A stretch of 64,000 bases of DNA from an uncultured Actinomycetota bacterium (GCA_963723975.1 CAVRTI010000002.1:199473-263472); one strand, 5' to 3'. Shown: positions 6,862 through 30,270, counted from the first letter of the stretch. A program made the numbers and translations. Notes: a model not told the origin generated them from the sequence alone.

Positions 6862-6956
6862 CCGCCGGTCACGCACTTGCCGAAACCACCCTGCGGGCAG
6901 CCGAATCTGCGGCCATAGACTCTGATCCGTTCTCTACAGAGGAGCCCCGAACCCGC

Positions 6957-9900: not shown

Positions 9901-10511
9901 ACCGCGCGGACGAACGGCAGTCCCGGGCGGCTGCCGTCCGCGAGGAGCTCGGCCTGCCGGCCGGCCGCCGGGTCGTGCTCTACGCCCCCACCTACCGGCC
10001 GGAGCAGCAGGTCGCGCCGGACCGCTACCGGCTGGACCTCCTGCTCGACCCGGACCAGCTCGCGAAGGAGCTCGGGGACGACCACGTGCTGCTCATCCGC
10101 CCGCACCCCAAGGTGGTCGACAGCGTGCCTGCCGCCGACGGCCGGGCGGTTGTCGACGCCTCATGGCATGCCGACGGGCGCGACCTGCTGCTCGCCGCCG
10201 ACGTGCTGGTGACCGACTACTCCTCGGTGCTGGTCGACTTCGCCCTCACCGGGCGGCCGATGGTGTTCTTCACCCCCGACCTGGAGCACTACCGCGACCT
10301 GGGTCGGCTGTCTCTCGACCCGGAGGCGCTGCCCGGCGCTGTCGTGACCGACGAGTCCGCGCTGGCCGACGCGGTGCGAGCCGCGGCCGACCAGGCCGCC
10401 AGGTACGCCGCGGCGTACCAGGACCTGGTGAGCAGCCATGTCCCGCGAGCCGACGGCCGGGCCGCCGCTCGCGCGGTCGACGCCCTGCTCGCCGAGGACG
10501 GCGCGCGCTAG
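6957..10511 (+). CDS. bifunctional glycosyltransferase family 2 / CDP-glycerol glycerophosphotransferase (TagF-like), 1184 aa
   Basis: ATG 6957 with GGAG at 6941-6944. GT2 motifs (VVVPIYNVERYL, VDDGSTD, VDSDD). TagF-type C-terminus (QTWHGVP, VLYAPTYR, LLIRPHP, LVTDYSS). About 500 aa of unassigned central region. Confidence 0.9.
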   Translation: MPRVSVVVPIYNVERYLLDCLESLAQQTLGDLEVVMVDDGSTDSSATIAAAFAAKDDRFVLVQQPNGGLGNARNTGADRATGDYLAFVDSDDIVTRNAYELLAGSLDRTGSDFATGNFHRLTTVGTRQAGMVFTAFNATRAGTHVTKHPALLNDRTAWNKLFRRAFWDEHQFRWPEGVLYEDIPVTLPAHVLARAVDVVREPVYLWRARVGDSTSITQRRTEPRAIRDRFAAVDGVSRFMAERGEHDLKARYDRSVAEQDLKYFLQQLDEADDEFRALFLELTNDYFDRARPDVFDDLPALGRLKWHLVRRRLMPELLEVLRFERAGEVAYTPIVRKGRKIYGDYPFRDDTELAIPAEVYRLGKDELPLPARIEDVWWDGDVLRLSGYAYIAFLELPTERSGRIRLTLEESGHPESVIPLETRRVRRPDVTENAPDGVTDYDGSGWEASVPIAALRHRGTFRTGNWRLRVEVRTKGVTRRRWLSGTEPGRGKRPGWTTVDGARIVPTTTAGNFAVEVSTTPAEVQDVRLDGTVLELTGTLHGRRFDPATASLRAGREDGTSSLELPVATGGSPAAGETPFVSRVDVTCLLGGGEVDETLARSQDLGDGVVWDLSLLPDATGARIPLSAGSAMPEQRLTLQGSEVLLQVTRTGRLQVIARHPRPEVHQVGWADGGWLELTGRYAESTGAPTELVLSAADRAVSLAVPMTRDGDRFTVRVPATAMVTPGGPMPLGQGQWDVYSRRAGEPGLVRVKVARSTLPSLPQRQVEGSRELMVLDVDHDCLALMVSGGLPVGERSRAGARRLRSEAYPAYLRQPLLDQVLVDAYGAGRYGDDARAVHDELVSRGTGLDVVWAVQDGQAVPPGGARPVPRRGREWYEALARSRFVVTSDLLGVPDLAARPGQRVLQTWHGVPVTALGLDDEHAGTRLGRGWQDRLRREAARWDVLLSAGARSTEVLQRAFGVQGSVTETGLPRHDLLVSPDRADERQSRAAAVREELGLPAGRRVVLYAPTYRPEQQVAPDRYRLDLLLDPDQLAKELGDDHVLLIRPHPKVVDSVPAADGRAVVDASWHADGRDLLLAADVLVTDYSSVLVDFALTGRPMVFFTPDLEHYRDLGRLSLDPEALPGAVVTDESALADAVRAAADQAARYAAAYQDLVSSHVPRADGRAAARAVDALLAEDGAR

Positions 10512-15281: not shown

Positions 15282-16541
15282 TCAGGAGCCGGGAGGGCAC
15301 TTCGCTCGGCCCCACGCGAGGCAGTCGACGACGATCGCGTCGTAGGTGCGCAGCAGCACCCGGCCGGTGTCGTTGTGCATCGGCGGCACCTTGGCCTTCA
15401 GGTGCCGGCTGAGCCGGCTGTCGTCACCGGAACCGCTGGAGACCCGCATCGTCTCGCCGGGGTGCAGCCAGTGGTCCGCAGGGAACTCGTAGATGTAGGG
15501 GAACTCCTCGAGCACGAGCCCGCCGGTCTGCACCGGGACCTGGCCCTGGTTGCTGATCTCGACGTACTCGGTGTTGAGGGCGTGTCCCTCGTTGCCGGGC
15601 GGGTCGATCTCCACGTGCGAGAACACGATCGCGCCACCCGTGGGGTCCCCGCACGAGTAGGTGCACGGCCAGGTCATGTGGGCCCGGATGTCGTTGTTGG
15701 GGTCGATCAGGTAGCTGCCACTGCCCAGGTGCTTGCCACCGTCGATCGAGGCGTTGACCAGCATCGGCACGCTGCTGCCGAGGAAGCGATCGGTCGCGCT
15801 GTTGGTGCCGAAGCCGACGTGGATGTCGACGGCCTGGCCGGGCGGGATGAAACCGCCGGAGGGCACCCGGCGGCTGCGGTCGTTGCCGACCCGCAGGGTC
15901 CAGCCGTCGATGCTCACCGGCGCCGGGCCGTCGTTGCGGATCCGGATGAACTCCTGGTTGCGCCGCGCCGTCTCGCCCATCCAGTCCGCAGCGTCGGAGA
16001 CGTACTGCACCTGCATGGTCAGGGACTCCTCCGAGAACGGCCCGATGCCGCACCGGGAGCTGTTGAACCAGCCCAGCCTGGCGGCGGCCGCACGGTCTGC
16101 TGCCTGGTGCTGCTGGAGGCTCTGGGTGATCTCTCCGTCCCGGGGCATCCAGACGCCCCAGCCGCGCTCGAGCATCCAGGTCGAGGCGTCGACCTTCTTG
16201 CCGCCGGCGATAGGCACGATCACCCGCCGCTCCGGGCGGTTCATGATCCCGGTGCGGCCCTTGTCGGAGCGCAGCTCGACGATCTTGTGCCGGACCAGGC
16301 TCTTCAGCGCGTTGGTCGACGCGGCGAAGCCGCACAGCCCGTGCTCGGGGGCGTCGATCCCGATCAGCCGGATGCGGGCGTCGATCCGGCCGTCGCGGTT
16401 GCGGTCGACGTCGATGGTGTCGCCGTCCAGGACACGGACGACCCTCACCTTCTCGTAGGTGCCGGCATCGGCGGTCGGCGGCGGCACGAGGAGCATGAAG
16501 GGCAGCGCAAGCGCAAGGGCCCACAGGCTCGGACGGATCAT
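15282..16541 (-). CDS. secreted thermonuclease (SNase-like) with two lamin-tail-like domains
   Basis: ATG 16541 followed by a signal-peptide-like MIRPSLWALALALPFMLLVPPPTADA. SNase motifs LDGDTIDV and RLIGIDAPE. Two LTD-like segments (EFIRIRNDG..., EYVEISNQG...). Confidence 0.85.
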   Translation of the reverse strand: MIRPSLWALALALPFMLLVPPPTADAGTYEKVRVVRVLDGDTIDVDRNRDGRIDARIRLIGIDAPEHGLCGFAASTNALKSLVRHKIVELRSDKGRTGIMNRPERRVIVPIAGGKKVDASTWMLERGWGVWMPRDGEITQSLQQHQAADRAAAARLGWFNSSRCGIGPFSEESLTMQVQYVSDAADWMGETARRNQEFIRIRNDGPAPVSIDGWTLRVGNDRSRRVPSGGFIPPGQAVDIHVGFGTNSATDRFLGSSVPMLVNASIDGGKHLGSGSYLIDPNNDIRAHMTWPCTYSCGDPTGGAIVFSHVEIDPPGNEGHALNTEYVEISNQGQVPVQTGGLVLEEFPYIYEFPADHWLHPGETMRVSSGSGDDSRLSRHLKAKVPPMHNDTGRVLLRTYDAIVVDCLAWGRAKCPPGS

Positions 16542-16650
16542 GGCTGCGCGGGTCACCCCATGGACATCGGCGCCTCGAACGGCGCTCTTGAGAGCGGAAC
16601 GGACGAGGGCAAAGTAGCCCGGACCGGGCAAAGGGCTGGTCAGCCGCCGG

Positions 16651-17803
16651 TCAACGGTCCACGAGGGCGAAGACGGCCTCCCACTGGGCCACCACGGCGT
16701 CGGGGGCGAACCGCCGGACGCTCTCCCGCGCGGCCCGGCCGTAGGCACGGCGGAGCTCCTCGTCGCCCATCAGCCGGGCGAGGCCGTCGGCAAGCGCCTC
16801 GACGTTCCTGGGCGGCACCACGATGCCGTCGACGCCGTCGGTGACGATCTCGCGCACACCGGGGGCGCAGTCGAACGCCACGCAGGCCAGCCCGCAGGCC
16901 ATCCCCTCGGCCAGCGCCATGGGCAGGCCCTCATGGATGGAGGACAGCGCGAACACCGAGGCGTGGACCAGCTCTGCCTCGATGTCGTCGGCCAGCCCGG
17001 GCAGCAGCACGCGCTCGGTCAGCCCGAGCGCCTCGACCTGCTTCCGGAGCCGAGGTAGCAGCGGGCCGCTGCCGAAGATCTTCAGCGACCCACCCCGGGT
17101 GGTCACCGACGACCTGGGCGAAGGCGTTGATCAGACGGTCGTAGCCCTTCTCCGGGGCGAGCCGGCCGGCTGCGACGACGACGCGCGCGCTGACGTCACT
17201 GGCGACTTCGGGGTAGAACGACAGCGAGTTGTGCATGACGCCGACGTTGTTGAAGCCCTCGAGCTCGAACCGCGAGGCGTCGTGCTCGGTGAGCAGCAGC
17301 AGCAGGTCCACGTCCCGGTAGAACTTCTGCACCCGCTCCCAACGGGTCGAACCGAGCGTCGCGTCGAAGGACTCATGGCTCATCCCGATCACGTGCAGGT
17401 GGTCGGTCGCTGCGGGAGCGACCCAGTTCATCGACCAGACCTGCATGCAGACGACGAGCCCGTCCTCGGCCTCGGCGAAGAGCGCGGAGAGCCGGTCGAC
17501 GGCCGCTGTCCGGGCCGCGACGTGCGCCTTCCGGGCGGCGACGACCCGGGGGTCCACCCGCGCACGCAGGCCGGCCTCCTCGGGCTCCGGCGGTTCCGGC
17601 GCCTCGTTGAGCACCAGCCAGCGGTAGGGGCGGTCCCCGTAGTCGTGCGGCTCGGGGTGGTGCTGGATGCCGATCACTGTGACACGGTGGCCACGGTCGT
17701 GCAGCATCAGTGCGAGGTTGTGGGTCACTCGCTGGACCCCGCCCAGCTCCTCGAGGTTGTTGGCCACCAGGAACACGTCCCGGGGCTGCTCGGCCCGGGT
17801 CAC
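16651..17803 (-). pseudogene. glycosyltransferase family 4 (GT-B), frameshifted near 17090
   Basis: GTG 17803 overlaps the upstream stop (GTGA). GT4 motif EGLPMALAEGMACGLACVAFD. The frame breaks at ...FAQVVGDHPGW | SLKIFGSGPLL... through one extra nucleotide in a C run at 17089-17091. Confidence 0.85.
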
Positions 17804-20647
17804 GACGACCCTGCCCGTGCGAAGAACTCGTCGACCACGGCCTCGGCCGCGTGGCCCGACTCGTAGGTGCAGAACCGGTCCCGGAACGCGGCGTAACGCT
17901 CGCGATACCGGTCGACATCGTCGTCGACCGAGCGCAGGGCCTGGACCAGCTCGTCGTGGGTCGCCACCATCGGGCCGGGGGCGACGTCCGGCAGGTCGAA
18001 GTACGTGCCCCGCTCGTCGCGGACGTAGTCCTGGTAGTCGTAGGTGTAGAACACCATCGGCTTGCCGGAGTTCGCGAAGTCGAACATCACCGAGGAGTAG
18101 TCGGTGACCAGCACGTCTGCGAGCAGCATCAGCTCGGTGACGTCGTGATGACGCGACACGTCGGTCGCGAACGGCGCGAACCGCGGCGAGAGCTTGAAGT
18201 TGTCGAGGTAGTGCGGGCGCAGCAGCAGGTGGACCTCTCCGCCGAGCTCCCGGCGCATCGGTTCGAGGTCCAGCGGGAGCACGTACGACGTCCCGAGCCG
18301 GCGGGCCCGGTCGCGGAAGGTCGGGCAGTAGAGCACCAGCCGCCGGTCGGTGGGCAGGCCGAGCTCCTGCTTCTTGGCCCGCACCCACGCCTCGTCGGCT
18401 CCACGTACCAGCAGGTCGTTGCGCGGCAGACCCTTGCGCACCAGCCGCCCCTGGAAGCCGTAGGACTTGACGAAGGTCTCGACGAAGTACTCGCTGGGCA
18501 CCAGCAAGGCGCTCCACCGCTTGACCATCGCTCGCTGCTGCCGGCGTACCCCGGCTCCGGCCCGCTCCAGCGCAGGCGAGTCGAACCCCATCCGCTTCAA
18601 CGGCGTGCCGTGCCAGGTCTGCACGTACGTCGTCTCGCGGCGCCGCGCGAAAGCCCGCGGGAAGCCCTGGTTGTCGACCCAGAACTCGGCCCGGGCGAGG
18701 TCCAGGTGGTAGCGCCAGCTGTCCCGGCGTACCAGCCGCACGTCGGTCGGGAACCCGTCGGTGCGTCGCGCGTAGGACCACACCGGGTCAAGTCCGAGCC
18801 GGTCGAGGCCGGCAGCCACCGCGGCCTCGTAGATGTAGCGCGGGCTGTCGGAGTACTGCTTGCCCATGTGCGACTCGAACACAGCGAGGCCGCTCTTGAC
18901 GGGCAGCCGGCGGAACACCTTGTACGCCAGGGCCTTGAGGGCGGCGTTGTTGCCGATGGTCCTGCTCGACCGCCACCGCACCGATTGGCTGGCCCGCTTG
19001 CGCAGGAAGTCGGCTCTGGCCCCCGCCGCGGACAGCCTGGTGTCCGGCGCCTGCTCGAAGGCCAGGTTGAGCCGGGTGGTGACGAAGGGGACCACGTATC
19101 CGGTGGCTGCGCCGCCCAGCCGGGCCCGGACCGGGATGCGACGGCCGGTCACCTTCGTCGGGTCGATGGCGATCGGCGAGACGTTCACCTCCGTGCCGCG
19201 TCGGATCTCCAACCGGACGTCCCAGACCGGGTTCTCCAGGTCGAGCTCGCCGACGGCAGCCGAGACGTCGATGTCCGTGCGGTAGAAGAGCCGGTCCCCC
19301 TCGACCCACCAGTCCCGCACCGGCCGCGACCGGCTCCGGCCGCCGGCGCCTCGTGACTTCACGTTGAGGAACAGCTCCAGGTCGTCGTCCGGCTGGATGC
19401 GTCCCAGCGGGATCACGACCCGGCCCGTCGATCTGCATGACCGAGCGCTTCATCCGGACATCGGTGATGAGGTTGTGCAGGGCGAGCCGGTCGAACGGCA
19501 GCCGATGGAACCCCATCTCGGTGACGTCCATCGCGGCGCGGTCTTGCGGGGTGTCGAGGTACTTCCCGGACCAGTACACCCGCCCGTCGCGCTCGACCAG
19601 GTCCGTCGAGAGCTTGAAGCCGAACCGGAGGTAGTCGACCGTGCTCAGCGTCCCCGCGACGTCGAGTCGCCGGATCAGGTGCACGCACACCCGCTCGACT
19701 GGCAGGAGCATCGCCAGCGTCTCCTCGCTGACCGTCGCGAGGTAGTCGGCGGCGAGCTGCATGAACTTGCGCTGGTAGTCGTCGTCGCGTTCCGGGAGGT
19801 CGGAGAGGTACAGCTTCAGGTCGTGCCGGATGAACTTGAAGTCCTTGTGCACCTTGAGGTCGGCCGAACCGTGCTCGCGCAGGAAGTCGTCCATCATCCG
19901 GTGCACCGCGACCCGGTCCCGGAAGTTCTCGAACTCGTAGCGCCGCTGGGTGATCGAGGCCTCCGCCTCCTCGGCGTCCGCCACCACCCGCCAGTAGTAG
20001 ACGACGTTCGGGATCACTGCGATGGTCTCGGCCTGGCAGTAGACCTCGGTCGAGAACAGCGAGTCCTCGTAGTGCACGCCCTCCGGGAACCGGATCTCGT
20101 TGCGGTCCAGGAACTCGCGGCGGTAGATCTTGTTGGTCGAGAGCGGGTCGAAGAAGAGCAACGGGTTCTCGCGCACACCGCGGTAGACGGCGCGGCCGGT
20201 GAACAGCTTCTTGGCCCAGGGCAACTCGCGGTTATTCGCCAGGTGGATCCGGACCACCTTCCCGGCGACGACGTCCGCGCCGGTCCGCTCGGCCGCGACC
20301 AGCAGGTTCTTGCAGGCATGCCGCTCGTAGACGTCGTCGCTGTCCAGGAACATGACGTACGGCGCCCTCGCCCGCTCGATGCCGACGTTGCGCGGCAGAC
20401 TGCATCCGCCGCTGTTCTCCGGCAGGCGCACGACGCTGACCCGGGGGTCCTCCCGGGCGATCTCCTCGGCCAGCTGCACCGAGTCGTCGGTCGAGCAGTC
20501 GTCGACGACCAGCACCTCGAGGTTGCGCAGGCTCTGGCCGAGCACCGACCTGATCGCCTTCGGCAGGTTCTTGCGGTCGTTGTACCCGATGACCACGACC
20601 GACACGTCAGGCGAGGCGGGTGGGCCGGAGACGGTCCGTCGGGCCAC
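17800..20647 (-). pseudogene. bifunctional GT2 / CDP-glycerol glycerophosphotransferase (TagF-like), frameshifted near 19422
   Basis: GTG 20647 with GGGAGGAAG 5 nt upstream. GT2 motifs (VVVIGYNDRKNL, VDDCSTDDS, LDSDD). TagF motifs (QTWHGTPLK, VLYCPTFR, LLLRPHY, LVTDYSS). The frame breaks at ...MQIDG | RVVIPLGRIQ... Confidence 0.85.
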
Positions 20648-20715: not shown

Positions 20716-21582
20716 TCAGATGACTGGTGGCCTGCCGGCGCGGGTCAGGCGCCAGACGGTCCGCCAGCGCATCGGTCGGCGCTCTCCGGCTCCCGGGCCC
20801 ATCCCCTCGCGGAACCCGGCGAACCATAGGCGCAGCAGCCGCACCGACCGGAACCTGACGACGCTCAGCAGGGTCCAGGCCGTCACGTAGACGACGGCCA
20901 GCGGCCAGGGCAGGTTCCGCCTCGCCACCCACAGCCGGTTCCGGGCGTTGAGCCGGTAGTAGGTGTCGTGCCGTGTCGGGGAGGTCGCCGGATGGTTCAT
21001 CACGATCTCCGGCGCGTACCACGTGACGTAGCCGGCGTCCCAGATCCGCCAGGCGAGCTCGATGCCCTCGTGCCCGTAGAAGAAGTGCCCGGGCCAGCCG
21101 TCCGCCTGCTCGAACAGGTGCCGGCGCACGACGAAGGTGCCCTCCCAGACCCAGCCCACCGCACCCGGTTGCAGCGGCGCCCGCCCGCCCGGCCGCGGCA
21201 CCCACCGTTTCGGCGACGGCTTCCCCGTCGGGTCGACCGGGCGCGGCTGGACCGCACCCACCCGCTGGTCCGCGACCAGCACCTCGACCAGCCGCGCCAC
21301 CACGTCGGTGGTGGGCAGGTAGGCGTCGTCGTCGTAGAAGAAGAGGTACTCGCCGCGAGCCTCGGCCGCGCCGACGTTGCGACCCTCGGGGATGCCGACG
21401 TTCTCGGGCAGGTGCACCGTGCGCACGCCTTCAGGCAGGTCGACCGGCTCCCAGCCGTTGCCGACCACGACGACGTCGAGGTCGACGCCCTGCTGGGCCA
21501 GCAGCGACGCGAGGGCGCGGGGAAACTCCTGGGGCCGGGTGCCCATGCTGAGCACGACGGCACCGACAGTCGGCAGGGTCAT
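20716..21582 (-). CDS. glycosyltransferase family 2
   Basis: ATGA overlap with the upstream gene. GT2 motifs (VVVGNG, FFYDDDAY). C-terminal hydrophobic segment. Confidence 0.85.
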   Translation of the reverse strand: MTLPTVGAVVLSMGTRPQEFPRALASLLAQQGVDLDVVVVGNGWEPVDLPEGVRTVHLPENVGIPEGRNVGAAEARGEYLFFYDDDAYLPTTDVVARLVEVLVADQRVGAVQPRPVDPTGKPSPKRWVPRPGGRAPLQPGAVGWVWEGTFVVRRHLFEQADGWPGHFFYGHEGIELAWRIWDAGYVTWYAPEIVMNHPATSPTRHDTYYRLNARNRLWVARRNLPWPLAVVYVTAWTLLSVVRFRSVRLLRLWFAGFREGMGPGAGERRPMRWRTVWRLTRAGRPPVI

Positions 21583-22361
21583 CGCAGCCTGCTCGAGGTG
21601 AGGATCGCCGCGAGATGCCCGACGACGGTCAGGCCCGCGGCCGGCACCAGCACCGCGACGAGCAGCCGGGTGGCCTCGAGCCCGCCGCCGGTCGCCGCGT
21701 CGACGACACCGGCGACCAGCGCGAGCAACGTCAGCTCGATGGAGTGGAACGCCCGGTGGAACGGCACGAAACGGGCCAGCGACCGGAGCCGCCGGACGCT
21801 GGAGACCTGCGGAGCGGCCTCCTCGGCGCGGTCCTCCAGCCGGGGCAGCCCGTTGGCCGCCCGCGCGATGTGCACGGCGTCGTTGAGCGACTTGTTCACC
21901 AGGACCAGCACCGCGAGCGCCGCGCCGAGGGTGGTCCACCCGCCCAGCGAGTCGAAACCGCCGTCGGCGCGGACGCCGAGCGCGAGCGGGATGGCGCTCT
22001 CGGCAATGGTGTGGCCCAGCTTGTCGAGGAAGAACCCGGCCGGGGAGAACGTGCTCCGCCAGCGTGCGACCTCGCCGTCGCAGCAGTCCCACAGCATCTG
22101 CAGCTGAGCCAGCAGCGCGGCGAGCACCGCGCCCACCAGACCGGGCAGCAGCAGGGCGGCGCCGGCTGCTGCCCCTGTCACGATCATCAGCACGGTGACG
22201 CCGTTGGCGGTGATCGCCGTGCCGAGCAGGACCCGGGTCAGGTACGGCGAGAGGCGCCGCTGGTAGAGGTCACCCGTCCAGTGCTCGGCATTGCGCCGGC
22301 CGCGCACCGAAGGCGGCTGGGTGACGGCCCTCAGCTCGGCGATCGTCGGGCGGTCAGCCAC
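21579..22361 (-). CDS. CDP-alcohol phosphatidyltransferase family protein
   Basis: Signature DCCDGEVAR within a polytopic protein. GTG 22361 overlaps the upstream gene by 8 nt. Confidence 0.85.
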   Translation of the reverse strand: MADRPTIAELRAVTQPPSVRGRRNAEHWTGDLYQRRLSPYLTRVLLGTAITANGVTVLMIVTGAAAGAALLLPGLVGAVLAALLAQLQMLWDCCDGEVARWRSTFSPAGFFLDKLGHTIAESAIPLALGVRADGGFDSLGGWTTLGAALAVLVLVNKSLNDAVHIARAANGLPRLEDRAEEAAPQVSSVRRLRSLARFVPFHRAFHSIELTLLALVAGVVDAATGGGLEATRLLVAVLVPAAGLTVVGHLAAILTSSRLR

Positions 22362-24144
22362 CTGCTGCTCCTCCGGTCGGGACGTCGGCGCGGGACCGCA
22401 CCTCGCGGAGCACGCGCGCCGGCTCGATCACCAGGTAGAGCATGCCGAGCCATGCCGCGAGCACCCACAGGCCCCCCTCGCCGACGGCGCCGCCGAGCAG
22501 CGACAGCACGGCCACCACGAGCAACCGACCGGGCCAGCCCAGGCCCAGGACCCGGGCCGTCGCGGCGGGCGGTGCCAGCCGGTTCAGCACCCGGTAGAGG
22601 TCGTCGTAGTGGTGCGAGGCGACCACCAGCAGCAGGGCACAGGCCGCGGCGCCCGGCCCGGCGCCGGGCAGCATTGCGGTGAGGCCGAGCACCCCGGCGT
22701 ACTCCCCCGCCCGGACCAGCGCGGGGCGCACCCAGAGGAACCGCTCCCGGCCACCGGGCCGGCCGGCGATCGGCGCCGCGATGCCCTCGGGCAGCAGCGG
22801 ACCTCGATCCAGCTGGGCCCGCACGATCTCGCGCTCCCGGTCGGTCACCGGCTCGGGCGGCCACGACCTGGCTCGAAGCGTGCGCCCGGCCGCGGTGTAG
22901 AGCAGGGACCCGGCGCCGAGCACCAGCAGCGTGCCGAGCGCCCCGACCGGGCGGCCGGCGGCAGCGAGCAGCGAGATCACCAGCCAGCGCTCCGCGATGC
23001 CGAGGTGCAGCACCTTCTTCAGCCAGGTCACCACCGGCCGTCCGGCGCTGCTACGCCTGCTCAGCTCGATCGCGCGGGCCGCCCGCTCGTCACCGACGCC
23101 CCGGCGTCCGGGATCGTCCCCGTCGTCCAAAGGTGCGCGCACCACCTCGGCCTCACGCAGGTCCTTCACCGCGGTGAAGGTGTAGTCGACGCTGTGCCGG
23201 GTCGTCTGCAGCGCGATCATCGCCGCGGCCAGCACCCACCCGGTTCGTCCGGCACCGGCGCCCCAGGCGAGGCCGGCGTAGCAGGCGAACTCCTTGAGCC
23301 GGTCCGTCGAGGCGTCCAGCCAGGCGCCGAGCGGGCTGAACAGCCGGGTGTACCGGGCGACGTCGCCGTCGACGCAGTCGACGACGAGGGACAGCTGCAG
23401 CAGCAGCGCGCCGGCGATGAGAGCCACCGGGCCGCCGACGGCAAACAGCGCGGCCGCGGCCAGTCCGATCACCACCGACGCGGCCGTGACCTGGTTCGGG
23501 CTCAGGCGCAGACGCAGGGCCCAGGGCGTGAGCAGTCGCGACAGCGGACGGCTGAGGAAGGTCGCCACGAAACCGTCGTCGGACTTGCTGGCCCGGGCCA
23601 ACCGGACCGCGTGCACCGCCCGGTCGTCCATCCCGTCCAGGTCGGCCTGCACAGGTGCGTCAGCGCCCGCCGGACCGCGCCACCACGGCCAGGGGTCGAG
23701 CGGCACCGTGCCGACCCGGACGCCGGTGCGGACCAGGCCGAGGACGAGGTACTCCAACGGGTCGCCGGTCCAACCGTCCCGGAGGGCCAACCCGGCGAGG
23801 TCACCGGCGATCCCGGCAGCCGAGACCCGGTCCTCGTCGGCAAGTCGCAGGGCACCCGCGAAGGCGGTGTCGGCGTCGGCCACCCGGTGCGCCGGGGTCC
23901 CGGCCGCGACCACGCTGCCGGCCCTCACCCGCAGGCCGCGGACGACCACCGCGTCGCGGCTGACGAGCACGGCCGTGCCCGGGCGCGGGTCCTCGGCCAG
24001 GTCAGCCAGCGCCTCCCGGTGCACCGTGAGGTCCGCGGCGACGAGCAGCAGCCCACCGGTGCCTGACCGCACGGCGGCCGCCAGGGCCTCGAGCCCGGCC
24101 GCCAGGTCCGGCGGGGCCGGATCCACGACGACCGGCGCCGTCAC
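22354..24144 (-). CDS. CDP-alcohol phosphatidyltransferase-domain protein with soluble N-terminal domain and long polytopic C-terminal extension
   Basis: GTGA overlap with the exporter ATPase gene. Central signature DCVDGDVAR. N-terminal domain of about 190 aa with no recognisable nucleotide-binding loop. Confidence 0.8.
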   Translation of the reverse strand: MTAPVVVDPAPPDLAAGLEALAAAVRSGTGGLLLVAADLTVHREALADLAEDPRPGTAVLVSRDAVVVRGLRVRAGSVVAAGTPAHRVADADTAFAGALRLADEDRVSAAGIAGDLAGLALRDGWTGDPLEYLVLGLVRTGVRVGTVPLDPWPWWRGPAGADAPVQADLDGMDDRAVHAVRLARASKSDDGFVATFLSRPLSRLLTPWALRLRLSPNQVTAASVVIGLAAAALFAVGGPVALIAGALLLQLSLVVDCVDGDVARYTRLFSPLGAWLDASTDRLKEFACYAGLAWGAGAGRTGWVLAAAMIALQTTRHSVDYTFTAVKDLREAEVVRAPLDDGDDPGRRGVGDERAARAIELSRRSSAGRPVVTWLKKVLHLGIAERWLVISLLAAAGRPVGALGTLLVLGAGSLLYTAAGRTLRARSWPPEPVTDREREIVRAQLDRGPLLPEGIAAPIAGRPGGRERFLWVRPALVRAGEYAGVLGLTAMLPGAGPGAAACALLLVVASHHYDDLYRVLNRLAPPAATARVLGLGWPGRLLVVAVLSLLGGAVGEGGLWVLAAWLGMLYLVIEPARVLREVRSRADVPTGGAAGG

Positions 24145-24911
24145 TGCGGCTTCCGCCGCTCGGCCGTGTCGGCGTCGTACCTCGCGAGCGCGTCCTCCAG
24201 CGGGCCGTCCGTGACCAGCGAGCCACCGCTCAGGTACAGACCACGGGTGCAGAACCGGCGCAGGTCAGCCTCGTTGTGCGACACGAGGAACAGCGTGCGG
24301 CCGCCGGAGAGCATGTCGTTCATCCGCTGGTAGCACTTCTCCCGGAACGCCCGGTCGCCGACCGCCAGAACCTCGTCGACGAGCACGATCGGCTCGTCCA
24401 GGGTGGTGATGACCGAGAACCCGAGTCGTACCTTCATCCCCGACGAGAAGTGCCGGAACGGCGTGTCCAGGAAGTCGCCCACCTCGGCGAAATCCACGAT
24501 CTCGTCGAACCGCTTCGCGATCTCGCGCTTGCCCAGGCCGTGCAGGCCGGCCGTCAGCCAGATGTTGTCGCGCGCGGTGAGGTCACCGACGAAGCCGCCG
24601 GTCACCTCGATCAGCGGAGCGACCCCGCCATGCACCGCGATGCGTCCCTCGTCGGGCAGCAGGACACCGGCGATGAGCTTGAGCAACGTGCTCTTGCCCT
24701 GCCCGTTCCCGCCGACCAGACCGACCGCCTCGCCCTCGTTGATGGCGAACGAGACGTCGCGCAACGCCCAGAACTCGCCCTTGCGCTTGTTCTTGCCCGG
24801 CACCTTCTCGGGTGCCCTGGAGCCTGCCAGCAGGTCACGCAGCCGCTTGTCCCGGCGCCGGTTGCGTGTGAAGGAGATGCCGAGCCCCTCGGCAGCAATG
24901 ACCGCCGACAC
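24141..24911 (-). CDS. ABC exporter ATP-binding protein (TagH/Wzt-like)
   Basis: Walker A GGNGQGKST and Walker B IVLVDEVLAVGD. Start abuts the permease stop. Confidence 0.9.
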   Translation of the reverse strand: MSAVIAAEGLGISFTRNRRRDKRLRDLLAGSRAPEKVPGKNKRKGEFWALRDVSFAINEGEAVGLVGGNGQGKSTLLKLIAGVLLPDEGRIAVHGGVAPLIEVTGGFVGDLTARDNIWLTAGLHGLGKREIAKRFDEIVDFAEVGDFLDTPFRHFSSGMKVRLGFSVITTLDEPIVLVDEVLAVGDRAFREKCYQRMNDMLSGGRTLFLVSHNEADLRRFCTRGLYLSGGSLVTDGPLEDALARYDADTAERRKPQ

Positions 24912-25748
24912 TCAGATCTCCTTGAGGACGGCACCCTCGAGGCGCCGGAACACGACGGCGCCGAGGACGAAGAGAACCACCGCGGCCACCCCGGAGACCG
25001 CGACCGCGCCCCAGCCGGCCCACTGGTCCGGGAAGAAGGCACGGCGGTAGAGGTCGAAGATCCCGGCGAGCGGGTTGAGGACGTACAAGTCGGCCGCGAC
25101 GCCACCGAGCTTGCGCTGCACGTCGTGCACGCCGTAAAGGATCGGCGAGAAGTAGAAGAGCAGTCTCAGGACGATGCGCATCAGCCGCTGGACGTCGCCG
25201 TACAGCACGGCCAGCGGTGCGAGCAGCAGCCCGGCGCCGGTCAGCAGGACCGCCTGGATCAGCATCGCGAGCGGCACGAACACGACATGCCAGGAGACCT
25301 CCGCCTTGGTCAACACGGCGAAGAAGATGAGCACCGGGAGCGCGAAGCCGAACTCCGCGAACTTCGAGCCGACGGTGCGCAGCACCCAGATCTCGCGCGG
25401 CAGGTTTGTCGAGCGCACCAGCTTGGAGTCCTTGGACAGCGCCCGCATCGACGTGCGCAGCACGGCGTTGGTCCACTGCCACGGAAGCATCGCGCAGAGC
25501 AGGAAGACGATGTACGGGTCCGCGCCGAGCTGACGCTCCATCAGCACGGTGAAGACGAACCAGTAGACGCCGGCCATCATCAGCGGGTCGAGGACCGACC
25601 AGACGTAGCCGAGCACCGAGTCGGCGAACTTGACCTTGAGGTCGCGGGTCACCAGCAGGGTCAGGATCCGTCTGCTGCCCCACAGGGTGGCGAGCCTCGC
25701 CGGAACCACCTGACCAGCCACGACGCTCCCACCGGTCTGCACGCTCAC
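24912..25748 (-). CDS. ABC-2 type exporter permease (TagG/Wzm-like)
   Basis: Polytopic ABC-2 permease pattern, immediately upstream of its ATPase gene. Confidence 0.9.
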   Translation of the reverse strand: MSVQTGGSVVAGQVVPARLATLWGSRRILTLLVTRDLKVKFADSVLGYVWSVLDPLMMAGVYWFVFTVLMERQLGADPYIVFLLCAMLPWQWTNAVLRTSMRALSKDSKLVRSTNLPREIWVLRTVGSKFAEFGFALPVLIFFAVLTKAEVSWHVVFVPLAMLIQAVLLTGAGLLLAPLAVLYGDVQRLMRIVLRLLFYFSPILYGVHDVQRKLGGVAADLYVLNPLAGIFDLYRRAFFPDQWAGWGAVAVSGVAAVVLFVLGAVVFRRLEGAVLKEI

Positions 25749-25794
25749 GGACTGCGGAACGCTATCACCGGGGAGGTTGCGCCAGCGGGCGCGG

Positions 25795-26835
25795 TCACCC
25801 GCCGTAGGCCTCGATGTAGGCGTCGACCCGAGCGCGCACGCCCGCCTCGTCCAGGTCGAGATGCTCGAGGATGGTGTACCGGTCGGGCCGGGTGCTCGGT
25901 GCCAGGACGACGGCCTCGGCGAACTGCTCGGTCGACAGCCCCACGTCGGCAGGGACCCGCGGCAGCTGGTGCCGGCGCAGGCACCGGTCGATCTGCTCGG
26001 AGAGCCGCTGGTTGTCCCGGACGTACGCCGAGAAGAGGGCGCCCACCCCGGCCAGCTCGCCGTGGTTGGCGGTGCCCGGGAAGAGCTGGTCGATGGCGTG
26101 CATGATCTCGTGGTCCGCGCCGCTGCTGGGACGGCTGTCGCCCGCTGCGGTCATCGCCATGCCGGAGAGCACGAGGCCCTCCGCCAGCGCGGTGAGGAAG
26201 CCGTCCGACTCGATGCCGTCGGTGCGGTGCAGCACGGCCTCGGCGGCGGTGCGGGCGAACGTCACCGCCAGGCCGTCGACCGGCTCACCGCGCTCTCGGG
26301 ACGCCAGCCGCCAGTCTTCGCACGCGGTGATGTTGCTGACCAGGTCACCCACCCCGGACAGCACCATCTGCGGCGGCGAGGTGCGCACATAGTCGAGGTC
26401 GACCACCACCGCCACCGGTGGGACGACACCGAAGGACCCCTTGCCGCCCTCGTGCAGCAACGAGCTGACCGGTGAGGCGATGCCGTCGTGCGCGAGGTTG
26501 GTGGCGACGGCCACCATCGGCAGCCCGAGCCGCATGGCGGCGTACTTCGCCACGTCGAGCGTCCGGCCGCCGCCGATGCCCACCAGGGCGTCGTAGCTCT
26601 TGCCGCGCAGCTCGCCCTGCAGGTCGCCGGCCGCCTCCAGGCTGCCGCCGCGCACGGTGAAGATGTCGGCGTTGGCCAACGACGGCCGGATCGCCTCGAC
26701 GACGCTCTCGCCCTGACCCGGGCCGACGGCGACCGCGACGTGGCCGTCGGCGGAGATCCGGCGGTCGGAGAGCAGGTCGCCGAGCCCTGTCACCGCGCCC
26801 GCCCGGATGTCGATGAACAGCGGGCTGAGCAGCAT
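25795..26835 (-). CDS. iron-containing alcohol dehydrogenase family, sn-glycerol-1-phosphate dehydrogenase-like
   Basis: Motifs GIGGGRTLDVAKYAA and VAVATNLAHDGIASPVSS, typical of G1PDH (AraM/EgsA-type) enzymes. Start trimmed to ATG 26835. Confidence 0.8.
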   Translation of the reverse strand: MLLSPLFIDIRAGAVTGLGDLLSDRRISADGHVAVAVGPGQGESVVEAIRPSLANADIFTVRGGSLEAAGDLQGELRGKSYDALVGIGGGRTLDVAKYAAMRLGLPMVAVATNLAHDGIASPVSSLLHEGGKGSFGVVPPVAVVVDLDYVRTSPPQMVLSGVGDLVSNITACEDWRLASRERGEPVDGLAVTFARTAAEAVLHRTDGIESDGFLTALAEGLVLSGMAMTAAGDSRPSSGADHEIMHAIDQLFPGTANHGELAGVGALFSAYVRDNQRLSEQIDRCLRRHQLPRVPADVGLSTEQFAEAVVLAPSTRPDRYTILEHLDLDEAGVRARVDAYIEAYGG

Positions 26836-26840
26836 CCGGG

Positions 26841-27584
26841 CTAGTAGTGGCACGCGATCTCCCGAGCCTTGACGAGGTCGTCGTGGTTGTCGACCTCGAC
26901 CCACGGCAGCGTCCCGATCGGCGCGACCCCCACCTCGCCGCCGGTGTCCACCAGCGTCTGGTAGCCGTCCTCGTAGTAGAGGTCGGGGTCGCGCTGCCAG
27001 GTGGCCTCGAGGGCGTCGGCCAGCGCACCGGCAGCACGGGCCTCGATCAAGGTCGCGCCGATGTACTCCCCCGCTGCCTCGGCGGGCTTCATCAGCTTGG
27101 TGATCCGGCTCATCCGGCCGGCGCTGTCGAGGACGACCTTCATCTCCTCCTCGGCCAGCGCCTTCTGGTCGTCGAGCGCGAGCAGGATGCTTGCGGCGCC
27201 GTCCTGCTCGCGGGCGGCCAGCAGGGTGCGCTCGACGTCGACCGGGTGCACCGTGTCTCCGTTGACGAGCAGGGCACCCTCGGCGAAGTGGTCACGCGCG
27301 AGCCACAGCGAGTAGCAGTTGTTCCACTCCTCGGCCTTGTCGTTGTGCACCAGGGTGAGACGGACGCCGTGCCGTGCCTCGAGGGCGGCCTGGCGCTCCT
27401 CGACGGCCTCGGCGCGGTAGCCCACCACCACCGCGACGTCCGCCAGCCCGACGGCAGCGAGGTTGCGCAGTGCGATGTCGAGGATCGTGGTCTCGCCGTC
27501 GACCGGCACCAACGCCTTCGGCAGGGTGTCTGTGTACGGCCGCAGTCGACGGCCGGCTCCTGCGGCCAGCACCATGCCAATCAT
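26841..27584 (-). CDS. nucleotidyltransferase (cytidylyltransferase / LicC-like)
   Basis: ATG 27584 with a GGGAG RBS. N-terminal motif MVLAAGAGRRLRPYTDTLPKALVPV. Confidence 0.85.
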   Translation of the reverse strand: MIGMVLAAGAGRRLRPYTDTLPKALVPVDGETTILDIALRNLAAVGLADVAVVVGYRAEAVEERQAALEARHGVRLTLVHNDKAEEWNNCYSLWLARDHFAEGALLVNGDTVHPVDVERTLLAAREQDGAASILLALDDQKALAEEEMKVVLDSAGRMSRITKLMKPAEAAGEYIGATLIEARAAGALADALEATWQRDPDLYYEDGYQTLVDTGGEVGVAPIGTLPWVEVDNHDDLVKAREIACHY

Positions 27585-27627: not shown

Positions 27628-28668
27628 CTACCGTCCCGGGCTGCGCAGCCTCCGCGGGCTGGTGAGGAACCCGACTCCCCACGCTCCGTGCATGGTGGCC
27701 AGGACGACGGGCAGCCAGGCCCGTGACCGGAGCGGCAGACCGCGCCCGACGACCGCCGTACCGACGACGACACCGGCGGCATACCCCACCGGCGCGAGCA
27801 GCGCCGGGCGCCACGCGGTCACCCCGAGGACGGTGCCCGCCGTGACGGCCAGCACCGCAGCCGGTGGAGCGAGGTAGCGCAGGCTGGCGGTCCCCTCGTG
27901 CTCGCGCATGACGACTCGCCGCCACCGGCCGTAGTCGCGGTACTGCCGGGCCAGCGCGCGCAGGTCGGAGCGCGGCCGGTACGTCACCGTCAGGCGGGGC
28001 GTGAACCAGACGACCCCGCCGCTCTCCAGGATCCGGTGGTTGAGCTCCCAGTCCTGGGCCCGCAGGAACGTCTCGTCGTAGCCCCCGAGCCGCTCGAGGA
28101 CCTCGCGGCGGAAGGTGCCGAGGTACACGGTCAGCGCCGGGCCCTCCTCGCCGCCGACATGGAAGCTGGCCTGCCCGACCCCGATCGAGCTGGTCATCGC
28201 GGCCGCGACGGCACGCTGGAAGTCGGTGACGCCTTCGGCCGACATCACCCCGCCGACGTTGTCCGCACCGGTGCGCTGCAGCGTCTCGACCGCGATCCGC
28301 AGGTAGTCGTCGGGGACGAGTGCGTGCCCGTCCAACCGGACGACGATGTCGTACCGTGCGGCGGCCAGCGCCCGGTTCAGGCCGGCACCGGTGGCGCCGG
28401 TCGGGTTCGGGACCAGCCGCACCCGAGCGTCGGAGGCAGCAAGCTCGGCGGCGATCTCGTCGGTGCGGTCCCGGGACGGACCCAGGGCCAGCACGACCTC
28501 GACCGGGCCGGCGTAGTCCTGGCCGAGCACGGTCGACACGGCGGCCCGCAGGTGGTGCTCCTCGTCGAGCACCGGGACGACGACCGAGACGCCGGGCCAC
28601 CCCTCGACGTCGGCGGCGGGCCCCGCGGAGCGGTCGGGGACGGGATCGGGAGCAGCCATGGCGCCCAC
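27628..28668 (-). CDS. glycosyltransferase family 2
   Basis: VSVVVPVLDEEHHL and RLDGH motifs. C-terminal TM segments. Confidence 0.85.
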   Translation of the reverse strand: MGAMAAPDPVPDRSAGPAADVEGWPGVSVVVPVLDEEHHLRAAVSTVLGQDYAGPVEVVLALGPSRDRTDEIAAELAASDARVRLVPNPTGATGAGLNRALAAARYDIVVRLDGHALVPDDYLRIAVETLQRTGADNVGGVMSAEGVTDFQRAVAAAMTSSIGVGQASFHVGGEEGPALTVYLGTFRREVLERLGGYDETFLRAQDWELNHRILESGGVVWFTPRLTVTYRPRSDLRALARQYRDYGRWRRVVMREHEGTASLRYLAPPAAVLAVTAGTVLGVTAWRPALLAPVGYAAGVVVGTAVVGRGLPLRSRAWLPVVLATMHGAWGVGFLTSPRRLRSPGR

Positions 28669-28755: not shown

Positions 28756-30270
28756 ATGCCCTCGCCGTCCGGCGTCCACCCTCCGCTGCCGCCGCAGCTC
28801 GACCCGCGCGGCCGCGCGAGCAGGGCACGTCCGGGTCCGCGGACGGGGCGTCGACCACCGACCCGGATCAGCCGCATCATCCGCCGCCTGCTGGTCGTCG
28901 CCGCAGCCGCCGCCGCGGTGGCCGTCCTGGTGGTCAGCGCGTCGGGGTACACCCTGCTCACCTGGTCGAGCAGGTCCATCGAGCGGGTCGACGCCTTCGC
29001 CGGCGTCACCGACCGCCCACCTGGCAGCGCAGCCGGCTCGACCACCTTCCTGCTGGTCGGCTCGGACGGCCGCACCGGCATGAGCAGCGCCGACATGAAG
29101 CGCCTGCACGTCGGCAACGCCGACACCGCCGCCGGGCGCCGGGCCGACACGATGCTGATGGTGCACGTCTCGGCCAGGCACGGCACCGTCGACGCCGTCA
29201 GCCTCCCCCGCGACTCCTACGTCACGATCCCCGCGCACGTGTCGTCCGACGGCGACCGGGTGCGCGAGCGGCGCAACAAGCTCAACGCGGCATACGCCTT
29301 CGGCGGGCCGGCCCTCACGGTCGCCACCGTGGAGCGCAGCACCGGCGTCCGCATCGACCACTACCTCGAGGTCGACTTCCTCGGCTTCGTCCGGCTGGTC
29401 GACGCCGTGGGCGGTGTCGACGTGTGCAGCCCGGTCCGGCTGCGGGACCGCAAGGCGGGCCTGCGGCTGCCGGCCGGCGTCACCCACGCCGACGGTGAGA
29501 CCGGCCTCGCCTACGTCCGGGCCCGCAGCCTCGACGCCCGCGCCGACCTGGGTCGGGTCGAACGCCAGCAACGCTTCCTGGCCGCGATGGTCGACCGGGT
29601 CACCAGCCGTGACGTCCTGCTCGACCCGCGGTCCCTGGTGCGCTTCCTGGACGCCGCGCTGGCCGCCGTCCGGGCCGACCCGGGGCTCACGGAGGACGAG
29701 CTGGTCCGGCTGGGCACCCGGCTGCGTCACGTCTCCGGCAGCGACATCCGGTTCCGCACCGTGCCGGTGGCCGACCCGTCGCACCGCACGGCGTCGGCCG
29801 GCTCGGTCGCCCTGTGGGACGAGGAGGCAGCCGCGCAGGTCTTCACCGCGATGCGCGAGGACACCGCACGTCCGGATCGCCGCGGCGGCGGGGCCGCTGC
29901 AGGACGTCCGACCGTGCTGCCGGCCCAGGTGCGCGTGCAGGTCTACAACGGCGCGGGTACGCCCGGGCTCGGCTCGCTGGCGACCGCCGACCTGGCGGCG
30001 CGCGGCTTCGTGACCGCGGGCCCGGCCCAGAACTGGAGCCGCACGGGGGTCGAGCGAACGACTGTGCGGTTCGACACCCGCTACACCGAGAGCATCAAGA
30101 CGGTCGCTGCGGCGCTGCCGGGTGCCCGGGTGCAGGCGGTCGCGGGACTGGGCCGCACGATGCAGGTGGTGGTCGGTTCGTCGTACGACGGGGCGCGGGC
30201 CGTGCGGGTCTCGGGGCCGTCACCCGCCGACAAGGGCGTCCGCACCGCGAGTGATCACGTCTGCAGCTGA
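28756..30270 (+). CDS. LCP family (LytR-CpsA-Psr) glycopolymer ligase with LytR_C-like domain
   Basis: TM anchor followed by the LCP core (FLLVGSDGR, RADTMLMVHV, LPRDSYV, NKLNAAYAFGG, GLAYVRAR). Confidence 0.9.
   Translation: MPSPSGVHPPLPPQLDPRGRASRARPGPRTGRRPPTRISRIIRRLLVVAAAAAAVAVLVVSASGYTLLTWSSRSIERVDAFAGVTDRPPGSAAGSTTFLLVGSDGRTGMSSADMKRLHVGNADTAAGRRADTMLMVHVSARHGTVDAVSLPRDSYVTIPAHVSSDGDRVRERRNKLNAAYAFGGPALTVATVERSTGVRIDHYLEVDFLGFVRLVDAVGGVDVCSPVRLRDRKAGLRLPAGVTHADGETGLAYVRARSLDARADLGRVERQQRFLAAMVDRVTSRDVLLDPRSLVRFLDAALAAVRADPGLTEDELVRLGTRLRHVSGSDIRFRTVPVADPSHRTASAGSVALWDEEAAAQVFTAMREDTARPDRRGGGAAAGRPTVLPAQVRVQVYNGAGTPGLGSLATADLAARGFVTAGPAQNWSRTGVERTTVRFDTRYTESIKTVAAALPGARVQAVAGLGRTMQVVVGSSYDGARAVRVSGPSPADKGVRTASDHVCS

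Follow-up and report, generated by a model that had tools for sequence, protein, structure and literature searches.

Which enzymes supply the activated alcohol for an actinomycete locus that is rich in TagF-type transferases, and what is that alcohol? The question is raised by a 64,000-nucleotide stretch of DNA (referred to here as the window) from an uncultured Actinomycetota bacterium (GCA_963723975.1, CAVRTI010000002.1:199473-263472). One of its minus-strand operons encodes an alcohol dehydrogenase (ADH) of the glycerol-1-phosphate dehydrogenase (G1PDH) family, a LicC-like nucleotidyltransferase (NTase), an ABC-2 exporter pair and two CDP-alcohol phosphotransferases (CPTs). A preliminary description of this block had read it as a route from dihydroxyacetone phosphate (DHAP) to an activated polyol phosphate and on to a membrane acceptor. 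The source DNA has a G+C content of 72%; the genome comprises 3.57 Mb and is 78% complete, and its relatives are Sporichthyaceae-like metagenome-assembled genomes (MAGs) from soil. The analysis presented here reveals a real, conserved and uncharacterized variant of teichoic-acid-type biosynthesis. With moderate confidence, we regard the block as the conserved core of a TagD-independent actinobacterial pathway for a teichoic-acid-like wall polymer.

The dehydrogenase is of the G1PDH type

Genes were assigned to families by Pfam, NCBIfam and PDB sequence searches. The iron/zinc ADH (positions 25795 to 26853, minus strand; PF13685, NF002022) carries the motif VATNLAHDGIASP. Its start is most likely the GTG at position 26853, which gives 352 amino acids, as in most homologues. 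Among solved structures, the protein matched the G1PDHs of M. jannaschii (4rgq; E = 2e-45) and P. calidifontis (5fb3; E = 6e-36). A 414-amino-acid G1PDH entry (9h4x), which is probably AraM, was matched at E = 1e-23 and 88 bits, compared with 159 bits for the archaeal G1PDH. Matches to glycerol dehydrogenase (GldA) structures reached only E = 3e-13 or weaker and those to dehydroquinate synthase (DHQS) E = 3e-6 or weaker; the score of the ADH against G1PDH structures exceeded that against glycerol dehydrogenase structures by about 110 bits. In NCBIfam, it obtained 240 bits on the G1PDH model NF002022 versus 48 bits on the GldA model NF006941. These structure matches and model scores indicate that the ADH is of the G1PDH type, as initially described, and nearer to G1PDHs than to GldA or DHQS.

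Comparison of conserved residues revealed that the DGIASP, GDLVSNITA..DW, SRPSSGADH (SRPxSGxxH) and HGE blocks align to archaeal G1PDH. The Asp of DGIASP, the His of SGADHEIMH and the His of NHGE occupy the same columns as Asp, His and His in 4rgq, and the metal ligands of G1PDHs are reportedly one Asp and two His residues. In published trees, Actinobacteria fall within a clan of bacterial G1PDHs, the sister group of the archaeal clan (PMC6431249). An ether-lipid role of the AraM/PcrB kind is ruled out, because PcrB/GGGPS (PF01884) had no match in the 78%-complete genome; the product of the ADH therefore does not enter ether lipids.

A LicC-like nucleotidyltransferase is paired with the dehydrogenase

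The NTase (26841 to 27584, minus strand; 247 amino acids; PF00483/PF12804) has LicC (1jyk; E = 3e-14) and the T. maritima inositol-1-phosphate cytidylyltransferase (IPCT; 4jd0) as its closest solved relatives, and the IPCT/DIPPS model NF041135 matches its residues 3 to 242. The RmlA/GlmU-like fold signature GxGxRLxPxT...PK is present and reads LAAGAGRRLRPYTDTLPKAL, with the N-terminal signature LAAGAGRRLRPYT...PK read directly from the sequence. The Pfam and PDB matches and this signature bear out the LicC-like assignment; the protein does not belong to the TagD-type HxGH cytidylyltransferase family (TIGR01518). From its coupling to G1PDH and to CDP-alcohol and TagF transferases, we propose that the NTase is a CTP:glycerol-phosphate cytidylyltransferase.

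The pairing was followed through 80 related loci from GTDB species genomes, which include Sporichthyaceae-like MAGs, Frankiaceae, Streptosporangiaceae, Thermomonosporaceae and Micromonosporaceae. The NTase gene is located directly upstream of the G1PDH gene in 79 of the 80 loci, that is, in every locus whose contig reaches that far. The protein is unusually conserved, with 70 to 77% identity between orders. No kinase or phosphotransferase gene of the Gtp3 type was found in the operon or in the conserved syntenic core.

The cassette is conserved across orders and has replacement modules

Synteny of the block genes extends over dozens of genomes and several actinomycete orders, an arrangement far beyond chance. 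The order found in most lineages is CPT(+DUF5941), NTase, G1PDH, short CPT and GT2b, with GT2a and a LytR-CpsA-Psr (LCP) gene nearby. GT2a (27628 to 28668, minus strand), the first gene of the operon, encodes a family-2 glycosyltransferase (GT2; PF00535, E = 8e-23) with a hydrophobic C-terminal tail; it is found near the module in 68 loci and retains 60 to 64% identity even in Streptosporangiales. GT2b (20716 to 21582, minus strand; PF00535), a soluble family-2 glycosyltransferase, follows the short CPT in 71 loci. The short CPT is located directly downstream of G1PDH in most loci. In the clade of the window, the ABC-2 pair separates G1PDH from the CPTs as an insertion, and the ABC-2 permease gene takes this position only in this clade; a GT2-TagF fusion and a family-4 glycosyltransferase (GT4) are also syntenic there. 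Actinoplanes, Plantactinospora and genome G031 have a bare NTase-G1PDH-CPT trio. In two other cases a CPT is missing: in genome G136 the NTase-G1PDH pair stands beside a stand-alone TagF, and in locus L011 it precedes an ABC pair and a GT2-TagF gene. Since its neighbors are, by lineage, CPTs, TagF-type enzymes or both, the pair appears to be a portable supply cassette for either kind of CDP-polyol transferase.

G1PDH occurs in about a quarter of the sampled Actinomycetes genomes, and 10 of the 39 genomes from the same family as the window are devoid of it. Four such genomes (G089, G178, G179 and G180) carry instead a coupled pair of a MobA-like NTase and a glycerophosphodiester phosphodiesterase (GDPD). 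This pair occupies exactly the position of the NTase-G1PDH pair, between the ABC permease and GT2a (locus L081, 16664 to 18117, in G089; loci L093 to L095 in G179, G180 and G178). The presence of a second source of glycerol phosphate beside a second NTase is independent evidence for glycerol phosphate as the activated alcohol. This argument calls for some caution, since a more distant GDPD paralogue (about 50% identity) also adjoins many G1PDH-positive loci, divergently next to GT2a, and is missing from the window.

The GDPD swap bears on the substrate of the ADH. The enzyme might instead reduce dihydroxyacetone to glycerol, leading to CDP-2-glycerol in the manner of Gtp1 to Gtp3, or it might use another ketose phosphate, and a different activated alcohol would result. 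Pneumococcal capsule loci do pair a reductase with a LicC-like cytidylyltransferase for CDP-2-glycerol (PMC1391919), the ADH remains below the equivalog cut-off for G1PDH (see below), and a dihydroxyacetone kinase operon is situated 7 kb away in the window. However, that operon adjoins the module in only 2 of the 80 loci, so that a conserved link to it is ruled out, and the conserved module contains no Gtp3-type phosphotransferase or kinase. The shared archaeal G1PDH motif blocks, the margin over glycerol dehydrogenase structures and the replacement by GDPD, which points to glycerol phosphate, make another substrate very unlikely.

In some related loci, a TarIJ-like fusion replaces or accompanies the NTase-G1PDH pair. 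In genome G029, such a fusion and a TagF gene adjoin the CPT-DUF5941-CPT-GT2b core, and the NTase-G1PDH pair is missing. The IspD-SDR (short-chain dehydrogenase/reductase) fusions, which are TarIJ/Bcs1-like and each accompanied by a TagF-like gene, are divergent beside the CPT-DUF5941 core (L064, 5300 to 6799, in Microbispora rosea; L084, 8023 to 9594, in G029). Loci that bear them probably handle two different CDP-polyols.

The pair is the likely common source of CDP-glycerol

No match to TagD (TIGR01518) was detected anywhere in the 78%-complete genome, and none of 80 sampled Actinomycetes genomes had one above the family cut-off. The best TagD-like match (125 bits) came from a genome of the same family that has TagF and no G1PDH. 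A TagD hidden elsewhere was therefore rejected as the donor source. A TarIJ-type CDP-ribitol source was likewise rejected: the genome contains no such synthase fusion, only a lone IspD-like match on another contig.

The distribution of the transferases was cross-tabulated in 80 Actinomycetes genomes, 36 with a strong G1PDH match and 44 without. TagF was present in 31 of the 36 G1PDH-positive and 10 of the 44 G1PDH-negative genomes (Fisher P = 1e-8, uncorrected for phylogeny). The corresponding counts for the short CPT were 32 of 36 and 6 of 44 (P = 6e-12, likewise uncorrected). Only two G1PDH-positive genomes, G031 and G146, have neither TagF nor a short-CPT orthologue, and in G031 a different CPT lies directly beside the NTase-G1PDH pair.

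The preliminary description had taken the route to be distinct from, and additional to, the TagF-type enzymes of the locus. The absence of TagD and TarIJ from the genome, the co-occurrence of G1PDH with TagF, and the loci in which the pair stands beside TagF without a CPT speak against this separation. It is more likely that the pair is a shared supply of CDP-glycerol.

Two CPTs of different kinds accompany the pair

Both membrane proteins described at the outset as members of the CPT family were found with their motifs, DCVDGDVAR in the long CPT and DCCDGEVAR in the short CPT, and both match PF01066. The long CPT (22354 to 24144, minus strand; 596 amino acids; PF01066 and DUF5941, PF19365) consists of an NTase-like cytosolic domain (residues ~1 to 185), a CPT domain (~190 to 335) and a DUF5941 membrane domain (~350 to 590). 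An AlphaFold2 model with a pLDDT of 89.8 and a pTM of 0.86 indicates that the soluble N-terminal domain and the polytopic C-terminal extension are real. Sequence searches matched solved structures of AF2299 (4o6m) and IPCT-DIPPS (4mnd). Foldseek retrieved the same entries with the whole model (4mnd, E = 3e-9; 4o6m, E = 3e-7), along with 4o6n, 4q7c and PIP synthases, and it retrieved the IPCT structures 4jd0 and 2xme with the N-terminal domain. No GxGxR(L) motif can be read in the first 60 residues, which suggests that this domain is a degenerate, catalytically dead NTase-like domain. The NTase-like domain of AF2299 is said to be truncated or degenerate likewise, and entry 4q7c presumably represents AF2299 crystallized with CDP-glycerol.

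The long CPT has the full DxxDGxxAR-x8-GxxxDxxxD motif (DCVDGDVARYTRLFSPLGAWLDASTD); most of 62 long-CPT sequences, including that of the window, retain the fourth Asp. The short CPT (21579 to 22361, minus strand; 260 amino acids) scores 29.6 bits on PF01066, above the 22-bit cut-off. It departs from the canonical four-Asp motif: its own motif is DxxDGxxAR-x8-GxxxD-xxx-H and reads DCCDGEVARWRSTFSPAGFFLDKLGH. Of 72 orthologues, 69 have His at the position of the fourth Asp, the proposed catalytic base of CPTs, and the remaining 3 have Ala. Judged from sequence, the His-for-Asp short CPTs are a distinct subfamily.

The DUF5941 domain (22357 to 23130 in the window) is fused to the CPT in the clade of the window; many Streptosporangiales and Frankiaceae encode it as a gene of its own, often with an overlap (for example, L064, 8484 to 9146). 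It contains a nearly invariant HHYD...R motif. Modeled alone (pLDDT of 85.8), the domain found CDP-alcohol phosphotransferases in all of its top 13 PDB matches, with TM-scores of 0.42 to 0.57, probabilities of 0.85 to 1.00 and E-values of 0.07 or weaker. A Pfam scan at E ≤ 1 returned only DUF5941 itself, and the fold resemblance stays tentative because hhalign gave no sequence signal between DUF5941 and CPTs (probability of 0.9%). The domain may tentatively be viewed as a degenerate CPT-fold partner domain or as a separate catalytic module. No mention of DUF5941 was found in the literature.

The matches of the long CPT raise the possibility of a soluble product. The cassette would then make a phosphodiester osmolyte such as diglycerol phosphate or glycerophosphoinositol, as in the IPCT/DIPPS systems of Archaeoglobus and Aquifex, with DUF5941 as phosphatase of the intermediate. 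The best family and structure matches of this CPT are indeed the inositol-phosphate-using AIPS, PIPS and DIPPS enzymes and AF2299, and the conserved polar HHYD motif would suit a phosphatase. To our knowledge, however, no glycerol phosphodiester solute has been reported in mesophilic actinomycetes, and exporter, GT2, TagF and LCP genes show tight linkage across orders. Even with the use of CDP-1-glycerol in archaeal glycerophosphoinositol synthesis (PMC8262930) counted in its favor, we judge osmolyte synthesis extremely unlikely.

Alternatively, the CPTs might make a phospholipid, e.g., phosphatidylglycerol in a Kennedy-type reaction of CDP-sn-1-glycerol with diacylglycerol, or a glycerophospho-glycolipid, while the NTase-G1PDH pair separately feeds TagF. 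Characterized members of the CPT family are mostly lipid synthases, the head group of phosphatidylglycerol is sn-glycerol-1-phosphate (PMC8262930), and the bare trios of Micromonosporaceae stand in a non-wall context, beside an aminotransferase and CorA. In most lineages, however, the CPT genes are coupled to those of GT2s, with LCP, TagF and ABC exporter genes on their flanks, and two CPTs plus DUF5941, kept together, exceed the needs of a single head-group transfer. This division of labor is quite unlikely.

Exporter and ligase genes point to a wall polymer

The ABC pair consists of an ABC-2 (Wzm/TagG-like) permease (24912 to 25748, minus strand; PF01061) and a TagH/Wzt-like ATPase (24141 to 24911, minus strand; PF00005). 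The best match of the permease is the galactan Wzm model NF050109, a weak one (58 bits versus a cut-off of 380). The ATPase scores 189 and 173 bits on the TagH models NF010065 and NF010066, both below the cut-off (320 for NF010066). The TagGH-like exporter announced in the preliminary description is thus confirmed at the level of the ABC-2/Wzm-Wzt family and falls short of the TagH equivalog.

An LCP ligase gene (28756 to 30270, plus strand; PF03816 and LytR_C) is divergent from the operon. Of the 80 loci, 69 have LCP homologues at a distance of no more than 10 kb from the module, and the adjoining ligase points to a peptidoglycan-attached product. TagA/WecG (PF03808) was found neither in this genome nor in five of seven relatives from the same family. 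These genomes have LCP ligases and loci rich in TagF, so that without TagA/WecG their linkage unit must be different from that of Bacillus and Staphylococcus.

The LCP neighbors also bear on a lipid-anchored product. CPTs could polymerize CDP-sn-1-glycerol on a GT2-made glycolipid, and the ABC pair could export the result as poly(sn-glycerol-1-phosphate) lipoteichoic acid (LTA), independently of LtaS. Actinobacterial LTA exists without LtaS homologues, by a pathway left unexplained (PMC3196553, PMC3089915); poly(glycerol phosphate) LTA is reported in Streptomyces and Thermobifida, which have no LtaS. The glycerol phosphate of LTA is the sn-1 enantiomer (PMC8262930), which fits the G1PDH product, and the cassette is present both in Streptomyces (PMC13118837) and in Streptosporangiales. 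The conserved LCP neighbors nevertheless favor a peptidoglycan-linked over a lipid-anchored product, and a glycolipid-anchor synthase was not identified. An LTA product of the cassette is accordingly unlikely.

Operon organization and neighboring genes

Gene calling by third-position GC and frame plots revealed one long minus-strand operon, in which all block genes have a coding-type GC3 of 0.89 to 0.95. Five of its seven junctions overlap or abut: NTase and ADH overlap by 13 nt, permease and ATPase abut (0 nt), ATPase and long CPT overlap by 4 nt (GTGA), the two CPTs by 8 nt, and short CPT and GT2b by 4 nt (ATGA). Gaps of 43 and 46 nt separate the genes at the remaining two junctions. The translationally coupled, co-directional block of the preliminary description was thereby recovered, with every named family and quoted motif on the minus strand. 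Its proposed limits, 21579 to 27584, enclose genes that are all present, but the operon runs further on both sides, upstream to GT2a and downstream through GT2b, the GT2-TagF fusion and GT4.

The GT2-TagF fusion (17800 to 20647, minus strand), a CDP-glycerol glycerophosphotransferase with a PF04464 match at G000:C2:217296-218399, and GT4 (16651 to 17803, minus strand) were delimited from the frame plot and translations. Both switch frame in midgene, near 19420 (19410 to 19430) and near 17100 (17090 to 17120), respectively, and the conserved protein goes on in the other frame; assembly indels or pseudogenization could account for this. The last minus-strand gene after GT4 (15282 to 16748) encodes a 488-amino-acid protein with two lamin-tail domains, the N-terminal region of which resembles a secreted nuclease.

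Between 4 and 36 kb of the window, a wall-glycopolymer super-locus surrounds the block. It contains two further GT2-TagF fusions, two sulfotransferases, a second ABC exporter and two LCP ligases. Positions 6000 to 10511 form one open frame of 1,503 amino acids with an ABC-2 permease-like N terminus, a GT2 domain and a TagF domain; it probably represents two genes fused by a genome indel, placed near 6789.

Discussion

From the family assignments and the synteny we infer the chemical steps of a pathway. The G1PDH-family ADH would reduce DHAP with NAD(P)H to glycerol phosphate, most likely sn-glycerol-1-phosphate to judge from its family. The LicC/IPCT-like NTase would then use CTP to form CDP-glycerol, as its coupling, synteny and family suggest. 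As the only evident CDP-polyol source of the locus, the pair probably feeds three GT2-TagF fusions and the two CPTs. The CPTs would move glycerol phosphate from CDP-glycerol to membrane-bound acceptors at the cytoplasmic face. Their favored role would be priming or linkage-unit synthesis, like that of TagB, together with the two conserved GT2s; the conservation of the core across orders while TagF varies, the LCP neighbors and the missing TagA argue for it. The ABC-2/TagH-like pair, by its family, would export the lipid-linked product, which LCP ligases would link to peptidoglycan. The first half of this route, from DHAP through an activated polyol phosphate to the membrane CPTs, is the one originally read from the block. 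As a predicted route it gains comparative support from the NTase-G1PDH adjacency, the bare trios, the NTase-GDPD replacement and the likeness of the long CPT to AF2299 and IPCT-DIPPS.

Several points weigh against this pathway or against its sn-1 stereochemistry, which we consider plausible. The 240 bits of the ADH are below the NF002022 equivalog cut-off of 413 bits. None of 151 sampled actinomycete genomes passes this cut-off. Four archaea and B. subtilis are among the 6 to 8 control genomes with a match, of which only 3 pass; the threshold thus appears to be fitted to archaeal EgsA. In an IQ-TREE analysis, the actinobacterial ADHs formed one tight clade apart from the archaeal sequences, 3ce9 and 9h4x. 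This tree is small and unrooted and has no reliable outgroup, being built from aligned PDB segments with weak paralogues as outgroups, the branches of which are saturated. GDPDs normally release sn-glycerol-3-phosphate, and the short CPT of the GDPD-bearing genome G089 is about 78 to 79% identical to that of the window. With CPTs so alike, the sn-1 assignment must be wrong unless the CPTs lack stereoselectivity. At 78% completeness of the genome, a TagD gene could have been missed. The co-occurrence statistics ignore phylogeny. Six genomes have the short CPT and no G1PDH, which indicates that the CPTs are not tied to G1PDH supply. Finally, the TagB-like priming role assigned to the CPTs is a pure analogy.

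No experimental study of the cassette was found in the literature searched. A 2026 pan-proteome study of Streptomyces noted only that araM, tagGH and genes for a CDP-alcohol transferase, a GT2 and a sugar-phosphate NTase are syntenic (PMC13118837). A 2021 study of TagF-like polymerases considered CDP-1-glycerol likely absent from bacteria and ascribed all known bacterial surface structures with glycerol-1-phosphate to other donors (PMC8262930). The replacement modules, the cross-tabulation of TagF and TagD, the His substitution, the pseudo-NTase domain and the hint of a DUF5941 fold are new here.

A bolder proposal can be put forward, although we hold it to be doubtful: actinomycetes would make CDP-sn-1-glycerol, from which, in the cytoplasm, CPTs and TagF would assemble envelope polymers of glycerol phosphate with "archaeal" handedness, and the same chemistry would be an LtaS-independent origin of actinobacterial poly(glycerol phosphate) LTA and wall teichoic acid (WTA). 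If CDP-1-glycerol is made, a whole class would break the rule that CDP-glycerol in bacteria is always sn-3 and a TagD product, and bacterial G1PDH homologues would have a physiological role outside ether lipids. The donor supply of TagF-rich actinomycetes without TagD would be explained, and there would be a route, open to testing, by which Streptomyces and Thermobifida could make teichoic acids independently of LtaS. The handedness of such polymers matters for stereospecific teichoicases (GlpQ), phage receptors and immune recognition. The short CPT with its Asp-to-His change and DUF5941, possibly a degenerate CPT fold, would extend the CPT family to polymer or linkage-unit synthesis.

Comparison with known systems

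AraM is the proof that bacteria can make sn-glycerol-1-phosphate. AraM of B. subtilis, which acts with PcrB, and archaeal EgsA belong to the same enzyme family as the ADH described here, and the window protein is closer to archaeal G1PDH than to 9h4x. The partner of AraM is a prenyltransferase, whereas that of the window ADH is a nucleotidyltransferase.

The logic of the pair is shared with the CDP-ribitol synthase TarI/TarJ (fused in Bcs1/TarIJ): a keto-phosphate is first reduced to the polyol phosphate, which a cytidylyltransferase encoded by a coupled gene then activates. Both pairs are located within teichoic acid loci. The enzyme families differ, since TarIJ combines a medium- or short-chain dehydrogenase/reductase (MDR/SDR) with an IspD-type protein and the window pair combines an Fe-ADH/DHQS-like with a LicC/RmlA-fold protein, as do the substrates, ribulose-5-phosphate for TarIJ and presumably DHAP here. 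The Gtp1/Gtp2/Gtp3 pathway for CDP-2-glycerol (S. pneumoniae capsules 15/23F), the enzymology of which has reportedly been described, likewise combines a reductase with a LicC-like cytidylyltransferase in a surface-polysaccharide locus. It needs the glycerol-2-phosphotransferase Gtp3 and a WchX-type transferase, which have no counterpart in the conserved module.

IPCT-DIPPS of Archaeoglobus fulgidus (4mnd) and AF2299 resemble the long CPT in having an NTase-like cytosolic domain followed by a CPT domain, and their donor is a soluble CDP-alcohol, as proposed here. The NTase domain of IPCT-DIPPS is competent, whereas that of the long CPT is without GxGxR and a separate NTase gene would provide the activation. 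The window has, in addition, the DUF5941 membrane domain and a second CPT. Its context is the export and attachment of an envelope polymer, in contrast to the osmolyte synthesis of the archaeal and Aquifex routes.

The WTA pathway of Bacillus subtilis 168 and Staphylococcus (TagD, TagB, TagF and TagGH) has in common with the window a CDP-glycerol donor, TagF enzymes, an ABC-2 exporter with a TagH-like ATPase and LCP ligases. Classical WTA synthesis uses TagD and TagA, neither of which was found in this genome, and proceeds without integral-membrane CPTs, whereas the window locus has two. The donor predicted for the window, made by a G1PDH and a LicC/IPCT-fold NTase, is probably the opposite enantiomer to that of the classical pathway.

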